This document shows, in pieces, positions 50,667-54,463 of a stretch of DNA of 64,000 nt. The DNA comes from a virus. Lineage: Duplodnaviria; Caudoviricetes. The position numbers and the translations under genes were made by a program. Position 1 is the stretch's first letter. Each line of letters starts with the position of its first letter. Location of the stretch: IMG/VR virus record IMGVR_UViG_3300011335_000604, positions 6,320-70,319 of that record. One strand, 5' to 3'. The notes beneath the pieces were generated by a model. It was not told the origin of the DNA, searched no databases, and saw only the letters and a list, made by a program, of their open reading frames with translations.

Positions 50667-51071
50667 ATGAAAAAATGTAGCAAATGCAAAACAGAAAAAC
50701 CGCTATCAGAATTTTACAATTCAAAAAGCGGGGAACACGGAAAACATCATTATTGTAAAGTTTGCCATTCAAAACTTGCCAAACGATGCTATAGTCATGA
50801 AAAATCATCGAAAAGACAAGTTTTTAGGAGATACGGTTTGTCATTGGAAGATGTAGACAAAATGTTTTTATCGCAAGATAAAAAATGCAAAATATGTCAA
50901 ACTCAAAATACAAAAATACTGGTTCATGGAGGACTATATGTAGATCATTGCCATGAATCTGGAAAAGTTAGAGGATTGCTTTGCAGAGATTGTAATATGA
51001 TGCTAGGTCTTTGTAAAGACAAAACGGATATTTTATATAATGCGATTGTTTATTTAAATAAAAACAACTAG
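50667..51071 (+). CDS. Endonuclease VII-family (His-Me) nuclease, probably a free-standing homing endonuclease
   Basis: KKCSKC..CKVC Zn finger; YGLSLE...QDKKCKIC...YVDHCHESGKVRGLLCRDCN; AT-rich versus flanks; own TATATTTG promoter (50655-62). Confidence 0.8.
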   Translation: MKKCSKCKTEKPLSEFYNSKSGEHGKHHYCKVCHSKLAKRCYSHEKSSKRQVFRRYGLSLEDVDKMFLSQDKKCKICQTQNTKILVHGGLYVDHCHESGKVRGLLCRDCNMMLGLCKDKTDILYNAIVYLNKNN

Positions 51072-51171
51072 GTGGCGAAATTGGTAAACGCGGATACGGT
51101 CAGCACCGTAAAGAATAGCCTTAAAGACCGTGTATACAGGTGCTATGCAAGTTCGAATCTTGCCCTAGTTG
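51066..51171 (+). ncRNA. tRNA-like RNA 1 (106 nt, non-canonical anticodon domain)
   Basis: AACTAGG/CCTAGTT acceptor, Leu-like D arm GCG-AAATTGGTAAA-CGC, T arm GCAAG-TTCGAAT-CTTGC; 55 nt between arms with no 7-nt anticodon loop; no encoded CCA. Confidence 0.75.
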
Positions 51172-52443: not shown

Positions 52444-52596
52444 TTATTTCTTTTTAGCGGTCTTTTTTGACTTGATGAAGTCACTCTTCTTAGGCGCACC
52501 AGGTGACCCCGGCTTCCTCATAGACTCACCAGATCCAGCAGCAATCCTCTTGCGCTTGGCGTTGATGTTTGCGTATAGTCCTGCCTTTGCTTTCAT
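52444..52596 (-). CDS. Small basic protein (50 aa, MKAKAGLYANINAKRKRIAAGSGESMRKPG...)
   Basis: Hand translation; below the ORF-track cutoff; coupled to neighbours. Confidence 0.7.
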   Translation of the reverse strand: MKAKAGLYANINAKRKRIAAGSGESMRKPGSPGAPKKSDFIKSKKTAKKK

Positions 52597-52712
52597 CCCT
52601 GTCCCCTTGTTGGTTTCACGTTCTTATCTTTTGGCGACCGGCGCTTCAACGCCTTGCCGTCCCTTCTCTTTCCAAAGGTCTGCTTGACCCCGTTTCCTAG
52701 CGACTTTGCCAT
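52593..52712 (-). CDS. Small basic protein (39 aa, MAKSLGNGVKQTFGKRR...)
   Basis: Hand translation; ATGA overlap with the next ORF. Confidence 0.6.
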   Translation of the reverse strand: MAKSLGNGVKQTFGKRRDGKALKRRSPKDKNVKPTRGQG

Positions 52713-52713
52713 G

Positions 52714-53076
52714 TTACTTTCCTAAATATTCTGGTCTAGGTGGACCAACAAACGTCTTCTTCGTCGAGGGTACAAACGCCTTGCTGCGCTTCTTCTCAAA
52801 GTCCTTGGCACGTTCGTCAGCCTGCTTCTTAGTCATCACCTCGTTCTTTTCGCCCTTAGCGCCCTTGTTACGACCTGTAGACCCGCTACCCTCGCCAGAC
52901 TGACGGGTAGGACCGTCTCCTCCAGCTGTAGCGGCACACTCCTTACCCTTCTCACAGCCAACCTCCACGTTGTCCGGGTTCTTGGAAGCCTCGTCCTTAC
53001 GTCTCTTTCCCTTTAAAAACTGACTAACGCCACTCATCCCGTATGCGTTGTCTCTATAGTCCTGTGATGCGTACAT
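52714..53076 (-). CDS. Basic low-complexity protein (120 aa)
   Basis: ATG 53076 downstream of promoter TTG(53120-18)-N19-TATATTTG(53098-91). Confidence 0.6.
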   Translation of the reverse strand: MYASQDYRDNAYGMSGVSQFLKGKRRKDEASKNPDNVEVGCEKGKECAATAGGDGPTRQSGEGSGSTGRNKGAKGEKNEVMTKKQADERAKDFEKKRSKAFVPSTKKTFVGPPRPEYLGK

Positions 53077-53120
53077 GTGCCTTTTTTTTACAAATATATG
53101 CAAGTTCGTCTATTATCCAA

Positions 53121-53160
53121 ATTCTAGACATTCCTAGACATTTTTAGACATTTCGTTGAC
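53121..53160. repeat. 10-bp-period tandem repeat (TAGACATT x3 plus one degenerate unit)
   Basis: attctagaca ttcctagaca tttttagaca tttcgttgac. Confidence 0.75.
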
Positions 53161-53245
53161 CGGTTAGGGTTGGGGTCCCCCCCTAGTCCCCCCCGCCGCA
53201 AAAATTTTCCCGAAGTCGATATGGCAAAGGGGGTGGGGTCGATAT

Positions 53246-53261
53246 TGTTCCACGTGGAACA
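53246..53261. promoter_or_regulatory. parS: parS centromere site
   Basis: Perfect 16-bp palindrome TGTTCCACGTGGAACA matching the chromosomal ParB/Spo0J binding consensus. Confidence 0.75.
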
Positions 53262-53370
53262 TTGGCTGCCTGTCTCGCCCGCCTGCCCGCCTAGGCTAGA
53301 GAGACAGCAAAGTATTACGCACATACATACTACAGCCTGTATTGGTCTCCGCTCGGTGGACAAAGTAGAC

Positions 53371-53395
53371 TAACACATTGATAGTCAGTGCGTTA
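53371..53395. promoter_or_regulatory. Symmetric IHF-like site 1 (TAA-N5-TGA-N3-TCA-N5-TTA)
   Basis: Reverse strand TATCAAtgtgTTA fits WATCARnnnnTTR. Confidence 0.5.
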
Positions 53396-53555
53396 ACGTA
53401 AGAACATCTAGTGTGTGCTGTATTTGCGTCGGTTATCTATACGAATTGCCCCTGCTCGGGCTGTATTTAACTTATCATTAACACCCTCCTCCGCGTCTAG
53501 CCTGTAGCCCTCGGGCAGGCCTACTCTTGCACTCCTACAGGCTGCGGTGAATGCG

Positions 53556-53580
53556 TAACGTGCTGCATGTCAGTGCATTA
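53556..53580. promoter_or_regulatory. Symmetric IHF-like site 2
   Basis: TAAcgtgcTGCatgTCAgtgcaTTA; same spacing, degenerate. Confidence 0.4.
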
Positions 53581-53989
53581 GAGACCATTTGCCTTGGATT
53601 ATACCCTTATTTAGAACCATTCTGAATAGCATTTTGAGGGGGCATAGAGGCATTATCTCGGGCTCGGATGTATGTAGATACCACCACAGGCGAGAAAGTC
53701 GATTTAAAGCATTTTCCGTGTGTTTTCGGGGCATGCAGGAGGCGTGCTCTTCTTGGTTGGGGTAACCCGAGGTTTGTAGGCTCAATGTGCGGGCGTGCAC
53801 GAGGTGTTTATGTGCTCCCCTACCTATTGGCGCTGTATGTCCCCTACCTAGTATCCTATGTGGATCTATAGAGGCAGCGAGGCATTCCGGCGCTGAGCCC
53901 ATGTAACACGATGAAAACCAATAAGTTGTGGGGGACTTCCCCAAATATAGGGTATAACAGCCACATATACAAGAATTCCCTTAACTTTT

Positions 53990-54014
53990 TTGTCCACTGA
54001 TTATCAACACGTTA
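53990..54014. promoter_or_regulatory. Symmetric IHF-like site 3
   Basis: TTGtccacTGAttaTCAacacgTTA; contains a perfect TATCAAcacgTTA. Confidence 0.5.
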
Positions 54015-54049
54015 CATTAAAAACATTGTGTATTGACATATAAATTGTT

Positions 54050-54444
54050 AACGACTTGTTAAAGTCGAGAATGCAGCACAACGACCCCCCCATATTTGCA
54101 GTGTCAAAAGGGAACAGCGGTTCCTGCCGAGTGTGAAACAAAGTGTTCCACGAAGCATTGAAGGTGTGAAAAGCACCAACAACAGGAAATGAGGTTAAGC
54201 GGGTGGTAGTTCTCATATCCGCGCTCTAAACTAACTGAGAAGGTAAGCGCAAGCCTACTGAGTGCAAGGGTGTCTAGAGTCAATAGGACTCGAGTCGCGG
54301 CTCGTTAAATCACAAGTTCTTTGTTTACTGCAACCGATGTCGACCGCATGTGAAGGTGCATGTGGGTCGAATGGCAACTATAGCAACGGCAGGCGCTACG
54401 CTCCGCAAGGTGTGTACGGGGTTCGAGTCCCCGCGTTGTTCTAA
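54050..54444 (+). ncRNA. Large structured RNA (~390 nt) ending in a tRNA-like module
   Basis: Long-range helix TTGCAGTG/TACTGCAA (54096-103 / 54326-333), multibranch junctions, GNRA-type loops, candidate pseudoknot, terminal acceptor plus T arm; no credible ORF. Confidence 0.65.
54382..54444 (+). ncRNA. tRNA-like module D
   Basis: AGCAACG/CGTTGTT; GCAA-capped hairpin; CGGGG-TTCGAGT-CCCCG; ends CTAA. Confidence 0.75.
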
Positions 54445-54463
54445 ACTTAATACACAACACAAC

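Follow-up and report, generated by a model that had tools for sequence, protein, structure and literature searches.

A modular structured RNA with a tRNA-like 3' module at the head of the early genes of an uncultured freshwater phage

Large structured RNAs encoded by phages are few, and we know of none with a known function. The put RNAs, which are about 70 nucleotides (nt) in size and consist of two stem-loops, act on terminators. For hammerhead ribozymes located beside genes of phages, cutting of polycistronic RNA has been suggested and demonstrated in vitro (PMC3088659), and the t-elements of plant mitochondria, which have the same T-arm motif as the module described below, direct cuts by RNase Z and RNase P, including the release of a 5' leader RNA (PMC1920247). 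The subject of this work is positions 54050-54444 of a window of 64,000 nt, the window being bases 6320-70319 of the 70,319-bp IMG/VR virus record IMGVR_UViG_3300011335_000604, which is rated complete by CheckV. A reading of the letters alone (hereafter the sequence-only reading) had described this stretch as an ornate non-coding RNA (ncRNA) heading the early region, and all of the strings that it quoted were found where it had placed them. Comparison with related phages confirmed that a conserved, non-coding, multi-helix RNA element of ~285-345 nt heads the early block on the + strand, between the putative early promoter and the first early gene, and that it ends in a tRNA-like module, plausibly its maturation site. 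With 12 homologues and covariation of its helices as evidence, it is very probably a genuinely selected structured RNA.

The homologues were reached through the neighbouring 307-amino acid (aa) gene (phrog_1221), which led to ten related IMG/VR loci, and motif scans of IMG/VR and of the Joint Genome Institute (JGI) metagenomes added more. After removal of duplicates, 12 distinct versions of the RNA were obtained, all in contigs of related uncultured phages; the window's own version is called W, and L-numbers denote loci in the related contigs. The type A layout is found in W, L003, L008, L110, L002 and L011, and type B in L006, L088, L013, L097 and L015, while L056 is a short distant form; the loci of a type C are described below. 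There was no DNA match to the region among GenBank phages. Scans of IMG/VR, the JGI metagenomes and 185,579 prokaryote genomes with core patterns returned the same clade and chance matches only, the remaining matches being judged chance by nhmmer and by eye, and the prokaryote genomes scanned held no copy. Locus L010 has gene 2 in common with these phages, in a different genomic context, and is without the RNA. The RNA family is uncatalogued and confined to one clade of freshwater phages; the catalogue of ~8,500 candidate structured RNAs from IMG/VR (PMC10690425) may hold it.

All 12 versions start directly after a promoter-like box and end in the tRNA-like module followed by CUAA. Because the 12 homologues begin right after this box, the left limit of the RNA is placed at ~54100 and not at 54050, where the sequence-only reading had begun it; a hairpin at 54052-54069 precedes the box and shows no conservation. 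The consensus of the box among the homologues is nAT[ACT]TTTG, and the DNA farther upstream is mosaic between phages. From its likeness to the known Bacteroidota consensus, we infer that the box at 54091-54098 serves as the promoter. The features of the RNA are as follows.

54091 to 54098, + strand: putative -7 promoter box of the Bacteroidota type, with one mismatch to TAnnTTTG and at a fixed distance in 12 of 12 homologues.
54099 to 54381, + strand: structured RNA body, up to the predicted RNase P site at 54381/54382; supported by homologues, alignments and covariation.
54111 to 54124, + strand: 5'-proximal hairpin S2, 5 base pairs (bp) with a tetraloop; in all type A sequences, with an analogous hairpin at the same place in types B and C; one-sided changes only.
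54163 to 54177, + strand: hairpin S3, 5 bp with a 5-nt loop; five distinct versions among 11 homologues, all fully paired, with 2 compensatory positions.
54191 to 54222, + strand: GAGGUUA motif followed by hairpin S4 (6 bp, 12-nt loop); G-C, G-U and A-U at one pair, 97% of cells paired.
54224 to 54279, + strand: helix Px, closing a junction with the near-invariant CUAACUGA and UG(A/C)AAGGGUG; nine distinct versions.
54243 to 54258, + strand: GCAA-capped hairpin inserted in the Px junction; present in some sequences and absent in others.
54291 to 54304, + strand: hairpin S6; three versions, 2 compensatory positions, paired in 12 of 12 sequences.
54315 to 54323, + strand: invariant, single-stranded-looking AGUUC(U/A)UUG, conserved in 12 of 12 type A, type B and L056 sequences.
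54340 to 54370, + strand: hairpin S7, 12 bp with one bulge, 31 nt; G-C, U-A and A-U at one pair in three relatives.
54382 to 54441, + strand: tRNA-like module, with an acceptor stem of 7 bp, a D-like stem of 2 bp whose loop contains GG, a GCAA-capped arm where a tRNA has its anticodon loop, a canonical T arm and C as the discriminator.

The evidence that carries this result is comparative. Nine helices were curated (S1, S3, S4, Px, S6, the type B pseudoknot, S7, a hairpin of the long insert and the T stem), their strands being extracted by pattern, and compensatory double changes were found at 19 of their 46 positions. Strands paired with their own partner at 93.8% and with the partner from another version at 76.4%, both figures including an unreliable acceptor row, with wrong partners in five sequences, which was otherwise ignored. 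As a control, the 61-pair structure derived from W was placed on the six type A sequences as aligned by MAFFT, where 90.6% of cells were paired, compared with 31-49% when the partners were slid by 1-3 columns, and 10 pairs had changed on both sides, compared with 0-3 for the slid partners; in 500 column shuffles the observed values were never reached. Applied to the full set of 12, RNAalifold recovered the tRNA-like end alone, because MAFFT misaligns the swapped modules, and since the core alignment is inconsistent, pairs were counted on type A only and on the pattern-extracted strands. Among the single helices, Px showed compensatory change in three of its four innermost pairs, and within type A five of its eight pairs change on both sides. 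The type B version of the GCAA-capped hairpin has two compensatory pairs and the same internal mismatch, and the S6 loop of type B forms a pseudoknot with the 3' tail, in which one change is compensatory. The T stem and arm of the tRNA-like module covary as well, and GNRA-capped hairpins are frequent in the RNA. In its compensatory helices, its single strand and its lack of a conserved open reading frame (ORF), the element agrees with what is generally expected of a structured ncRNA, in a sample that is small and related and with helices partly picked by hand.

Folding energy does not add to this. The stretch 54050-54444 folds no better than its shuffles (z values of -1.43 for the + strand and -1.64 for the - strand), a result that the sequence-only reading had itself named as one that would count against it; covariation was judged to outweigh it, and the case therefore rests on the comparative evidence. 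A minimum free energy no better than that of shuffles would suit a functionless interval, that is, a decaying remnant of a tRNA or ncRNA gene or a recombination-prone spacer in which hairpins are tolerated and only the promoter and the cut site matter, and so would the extreme turnover of modules and the narrow distribution, with no members beyond one phage clade in three collections. This explanation appears improbable, because compensatory changes keep at least nine helices paired across versions, because the loop motifs stay invariant while overall identity is 70-80%, and because 240-480 nt have been kept at this place in every relative despite the compactness of phage genomes.

The only frames on the + strand of 54050-54444 are a GTG frame of 60 aa and one that extends the first gene at its N terminus. 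No ORF of the stretch is conserved, and the homologue alignment shows no reading frame common to the relatives. An insertion of 25 nt and indels of 1 nt set W apart from its closest relatives, and these indels, together with the absence of a common frame, show that the RNA is non-coding. Furthermore, several helices need G-U pairs, which would be A-C on the other strand, and selection has therefore acted on the + strand RNA. This bears on the suggestion that the element works at the level of DNA or in replication, as a primer transcript of the ColE1 RNA II type or as a packaging or partition site in the non-coding junction. The RNA does lie at the edge of a gene-poor junction of ~1.3-2 kb with divergent promoter boxes and a parS-like palindrome (53246-53261), and several of the relatives' contigs begin nearby. 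However, the G-U-dependent helices point to RNA and not to duplex DNA, and the RNA ends in a processing module that is followed by genes, which makes a DNA-level role very improbable.

Some of the helices proposed by the sequence-only reading needed correction. GGTG/CACC (54163-54177), GCGGGT/ATCCGC (54199-54222), the GCAA-capped hairpin (54243-54258) and the long hairpin at 54340-54370 all undergo compensatory change in homologues, the last with three pair types at one position. In contrast, the helix 54096/54326, which was to close a domain of ~240 nt, has its first three bases in the -7 box, and L003 alters its 5' strand without compensation; this strand covaries instead with a partner ~25 nt away (helix S1) in L003, L002, L008 and L110. 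TTCCTG/CAGGAA, TG-TGAAA-CA and AGTGTT/AGCATT lie within, or depend on, the 25-nt insertion, which only W and L011 have, and GAGTC/GACTC cannot form in L008, L002 and L110. The candidate pseudoknot TTCTCA/TGAGAA could form in all type A sequences but one and never covaries: it is intact and invariant in W, L003 and L008, has one mismatch in L110 and L002, and is missing from L011. For AGGGAAC/GTTCTTT there is a competing local hairpin, and its two strands do not vary. The RNA, which the sequence-only reading had likened to GOLLD and ROOL, is a member of neither family, as there was no covariance-model match to either in the window, the homologues or the type C relatives, and ~285-345 nt is far smaller than both.

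The RNA is modular. Common to all 12 versions are GAGGUUA (GUGGUAA in L056), Px with its junction strings, S6, AGUUC(U/A)UUG and the tRNA-like end, whereas whole hairpins have been inserted, deleted or replaced between relatives. For example, the 25-nt insertion of W and L011 lies near the 5' end, and S7 is replaced by a multi-hairpin insert of ~110-200 nt in L002, L006, L011, L013, L088, L097 and L015; this insert has a covarying hairpin of its own, and five of the seven inserts contain a hairpin with a conserved 10-nt loop. The exchange goes further in type C, found at L139:928-1390(-), L127:1788-2246(-), L126:12525-13006(-), L160:12283-12662(-) and L141:5917-6298(-). In these loci both flanks are retained, with the promoter box and 5' hairpin on one side and the 3' end (ACAACUAUA, the tRNA-like module and CUAA) on the other, while the middle of ~400 nt is unrelated to that of the other types; it occurs in two sub-versions and has 89 predicted pairs, 16 of them compensatory. 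Constant ends around an interior that changes fast and is always structured suggest an expression-and-processing cassette for stand-alone RNAs.

The tRNA-like module is not confined to the end of this RNA. Short tRNA-like modules, consisting of an acceptor stem, a CAUGGUG linker, a T arm and then CUAA, and always followed by a short leader and ATG, are found in the next gene junctions of W and in many other phage contigs. The CUAA-plus-leader layout is found after every tRNA-like module in W and its relatives, and the module of the RNA itself, with its UAA, ends 10 nt before the first early ORF in W and 10-25 nt before the ATG in the homologues. The junctions downstream of the RNA contain the following.

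54442 to 54454, + strand: UAA trailer and short A/C-rich leader, following the predicted RNase Z cut after 54441, with the ATG at 54455.
54455 to 54787, + strand: first early ORF, 110 aa, without a family match; it differs among relatives that have the RNA.
54789 to 54837, + strand: degenerate tRNA-like minihelix between early genes 1 and 2, with the T loop CUCGUUU in place of UUCGAnU and its two stems intact.
55796 to 55843, + strand: tRNA-like minihelix between early genes 2 and 3; a hammerhead lies in this slot in L006.

The linker-plus-T-arm, GGCATGGTG...GGTTCGAnTCC, was also observed in many unrelated IMG/VR contigs (e.g. L130, L132, L133, L140, L128 and L148), sometimes right after another T arm, and this half-tRNA module is therefore far wider than the clade.

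The best available evidence for what these modules do comes from the slot between early genes 2 and 3. In L006 the place of the minihelix of W, L008 and L011 is taken by a hammerhead (L006:4901-4982, + strand), which scores 34.1 bits on the RAGATH-1 model, below the cut-off of that model. Its core (CUGAUGA / GAAAC / GUC) is intact and none of the three stems is missing, and the leader that follows it shares homology with the one that follows the minihelix in L011 and L008. More hammerhead cores were found in early-gene junctions of L010, L015, L126, L160 and L065. Since a self-cutting ribozyme exchanges with the tRNA mimic in a sister slot, the tRNA-like modules are probably cut sites. Cutting at the module that ends the RNA is accordingly held with somewhat better than even confidence, and if the modules are cut sites, the RNA is probably severed from the early message.

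Alternatively, the body and the tRNA-like end could be a single molecule, cut at its 3' end only, provided with CCA and acting as a tRNA-linked mimic, in the manner of transfer-messenger RNA (tmRNA) or of the pseudoknot-plus-tRNA-like 3' ends of plant viruses, that engages tRNA-binding machinery of the host. The acceptor stem, the GG in the D-like loop, the canonical T loop, a trailer other than CCA and the type B pseudoknot are in keeping with this, and the loop string UGAAAGGGUG presumably resembles the tRNA-elbow-binding segment of bacterial RNase P RNA, a likeness that we treat as a lead only. However, the acceptor 3' strand has its partner right beside it rather than at the RNA's 5' end, a G3:U70 pair is lacking, the relatives have no tag-like frame in common, and most homologues have U at -1, a base suited to RNase P. 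The tmRNA model (RF00023) matches just a 17-nt T loop elsewhere (W 55815-55831, 16.6 bits vs 47), ARAGORN found no tmRNA, and the candidate tag frames differ in every relative, so that tmRNA itself was rejected. Bacterial RNase P RNA (RF00010) was likewise rejected: at E<=10 its model found nothing here, and it did find a match in 11 of 14 control genomes. Taken together, these observations leave little room for a single tRNA-linked molecule.

The reading that we prefer is that of a stand-alone structured ncRNA, which occupies a conserved RNA slot at the start of the rightward early unit, is cut free and acts early, a reading that we consider evenly poised between right and wrong. Under this reading, host RNA polymerase would start a few bases after the -7 box (predicted at ~54102-54106), and the nascent RNA would fold into the 5' hairpin, the chain of covarying hairpins and the junction that displays the near-invariant loop strings, while transcription would continue into the tRNA-like module. 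RNase Z would then cut after the discriminator C (54441), freeing the downstream mRNA with a short leader, and RNase P would cut at 54381/54382, leaving an RNA of ~280 nt with a defined 3' end and a small tRNA-like piece. Such cuts would have their parallels in the RNase P cut that forms the 3' end of MALAT1 and in the RNase Z cut at a t-element that releases the cox1 leader of plant mitochondria. The released RNA would act in the first minutes of infection, with the invariant junction loop and AGUUCUUUG as its obvious contact surfaces. Action in trans is a tentative suggestion; the fast turnover of the interior fits a phage-host interface, such as takeover or counter-defence, better than housekeeping.

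Several points weigh against this reading. The promoter is assigned by a consensus match with one mismatch, and cleavage of the modules by RNase P and RNase Z is a prediction by analogy. The covariation comes from only 12 related sequences, with helices picked partly by eye and MAFFT alignments that are inconsistent in places; no single global fold was obtained, and the long-range pairings are ambiguous. The folding-energy z values of the 12 homologues, taken with corrected ends, range from -2.2 to +1.0, with a mean of about -0.9. Among sequencing runs, 20 holders of phage sequence were found, almost all of them DNA and with contigs as the hits, and the sole trace from an RNA library is a freshwater metatranscriptome contig of 181 nt, identical to 54472-54652; it is counted here, although it lies within the first early ORF, does not cover the RNA and says nothing either way. 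Finally, the type C middle is without any conserved core motif of types A and B, and the slot may therefore need just some folded RNA, which would favour a generic role in cis.

Such a role could be that of a leader which modifies the polymerase, as in the put-like antitermination of HK022, or that of a 5' stabiliser, an insulator or an entry platform for an enzyme. The RNA immediately follows the putative early promoter and precedes every early gene, its presence does not depend on the gene that comes next, and, to judge by the unrelated, interchangeable middle of type C, any folded spacer may suffice. Because the first ORF differs among phages that share the RNA, a gene-specific leader can be set aside. 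As regards antitermination, the + strand of 54000-57000 has no terminator-like sites except the T arm in a consensus scan, host terminator rules possibly being different, and 280-480 nt is far above the size of the known put RNAs. Furthermore, the cut-site module between the RNA and the first gene argues for separation, and the near-invariant loop strings in types A and B and in L056 imply a specific partner. For these reasons a leader acting in cis is considered unlikely. At its most extended, the stand-alone reading would make the interval from the promoter to the tRNA-like module a slot for interchangeable ornate RNAs, which would be the first products of infection, freed by host tRNA enzymes and acting in trans on host targets (for instance in counter-defence or takeover, or as self-assembling particles like those of ROOL and GOLLD), their modules turning over in an arms race. 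This extension is rather doubtful; if it were true, the slot could be viewed as a phage counterpart of MALAT1-type 3'-end formation.

No Rfam family accounts for the RNA, in agreement with the sequence-only reading. The 4227 Rfam models gave no family match in the window at gathering thresholds, and at E<=10 over 53300-54900 the tRNA-like end was the sole match overlapping the RNA on its own strand; the homologues and type C loci likewise belong to no Rfam family at gathering and permissive thresholds. The 3' module is not an ordinary tRNA, since it was undetected by ARAGORN and RF00005 and has a GCAA tetraloop on its middle arm and a 2-bp D stem. Its best Rfam match is to mascRNA-menRNA (RF01684), at 24.8 bits for W, while L011 and L139 score 30.7 and 24.7, all below the cut-off of 42.5. 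Group I and II introns, the hammerhead and other ribozymes were rejected for the body, with no Rfam match on the + strand of 54099-54444, and a hammerhead core at the CUGAUGA of some relatives is not conserved across the family. Also rejected were a tag peptide or micro-ORF in 54199-54238, where frames and peptides differ in every relative; antisense action on the phage's own genes, where the conserved motifs have no targets; and a kissing pair between the loop of the long insert and an upstream hairpin, which occurs only in L006 and L088. Readings as a K-turn or K-loop and as an RNase P-like P4 were dropped.

With regard to the genome, the left 42 kb of the window carries structural genes on the minus strand (portal, large terminase and several proteins of 1,100-1,600 aa), and the right part carries replication genes and small early-type genes on the plus strand. 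Coding capacity is low in 52,500-54,455, after which the plus-strand block opens with the 110-aa ORF at 54455. The host is presumably of the Bacteroidota type, as the genes are without Shine-Dalgarno sequences, their leaders are A/C-rich and TAnnTTTG boxes are over-represented (58 vs 43 expected). Upstream of the RNA, ~850 nt at 53100-53950 are ORF-poor on both strands and 71-79% identical in relatives; minus-strand TATATTTG boxes at 53949-53942 and 53098-53091 could drive a leftward non-coding transcript there. The parS-type palindrome is perfect over 16 bp and unique in the window, and 0 shuffles gave one; a half-site of it within the RNA (54144-54152) is not kept in relatives. Elsewhere, 106 nt at 51066-51171 (+ strand) score 38.8 bits on the Rfam tRNA model (cut-off 29) with permissive filters; missed by ARAGORN and by the gathering scan of the whole window, they represent a tRNA or tRNA-like gene that is over-long and carries a large insertion in its middle.

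The value of this locus lies in its clear boundaries, a putative promoter and a predicted tRNA-like cut site, and in natural module swaps that mark the constant parts, while the neighbouring exchange of a ribozyme for a tRNA mimic hints at how the 3' end of the RNA is made. At ~280 nt, it is a compact test case in which to assay RNase P and RNase Z and to apply chemical probing and cryo-electron microscopy. If release and action in trans are true, the RNA would be produced ahead of every protein of the phage, and phages would use the tRNA-processing enzymes of the host to mature ncRNAs as well as messages.

Among the known systems, GOLLD (RF01998) and ROOL (RF03087) are likewise phage-borne multi-helix ncRNAs, rich in GNRA loops and located beside tRNA or tRNA-like genes, but this RNA is 2-3 times smaller, is found in one freshwater phage clade, has its interior swapped in modules and matches neither model. 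In MALAT1 and MEN-beta, too, a long ncRNA is directly followed by an anticodon-less tRNA-like fold, the mascRNA; that system is eukaryotic and nuclear, whereas in the phage an mRNA follows the module, and because the scores fall below the cut-off, the likeness is one of shape and not of homology. The plant mitochondrial t-elements are tRNA-like folds with the same T-arm motif in long transcripts (PMC1920247), in an organelle where the leaders are not conserved ornate RNAs, while for the phage cleavage is predicted. The hammerheads of phages and prophages are also RNA devices between phage genes (PMC3088659), and the sister slot of L006 holds one, but the body of this RNA has no ribozyme core, and the hammerhead is informative only for what the tRNA-like modules do. 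The putL and putR RNAs of HK022 resemble it as folded RNAs directly downstream of phage early promoters and differ in that here no terminators were seen on the + strand of 54000-57000 by consensus scan and a putative cut site follows the RNA. The packaging RNA (pRNA) of phi29 is driven by an early promoter and diverges fast in sequence while its helices are kept, but it belongs to small podoviruses with protein-primed replication and multimerises through complementary loops, and neither a conserved complementary loop pair nor a link to the portal was found in this RNA. In its general kind, therefore, this is a large structured phage RNA beside tRNA-like genes, and its unusual traits are the built-in tRNA-like 3' processing module and the modular turnover inside fixed ends.

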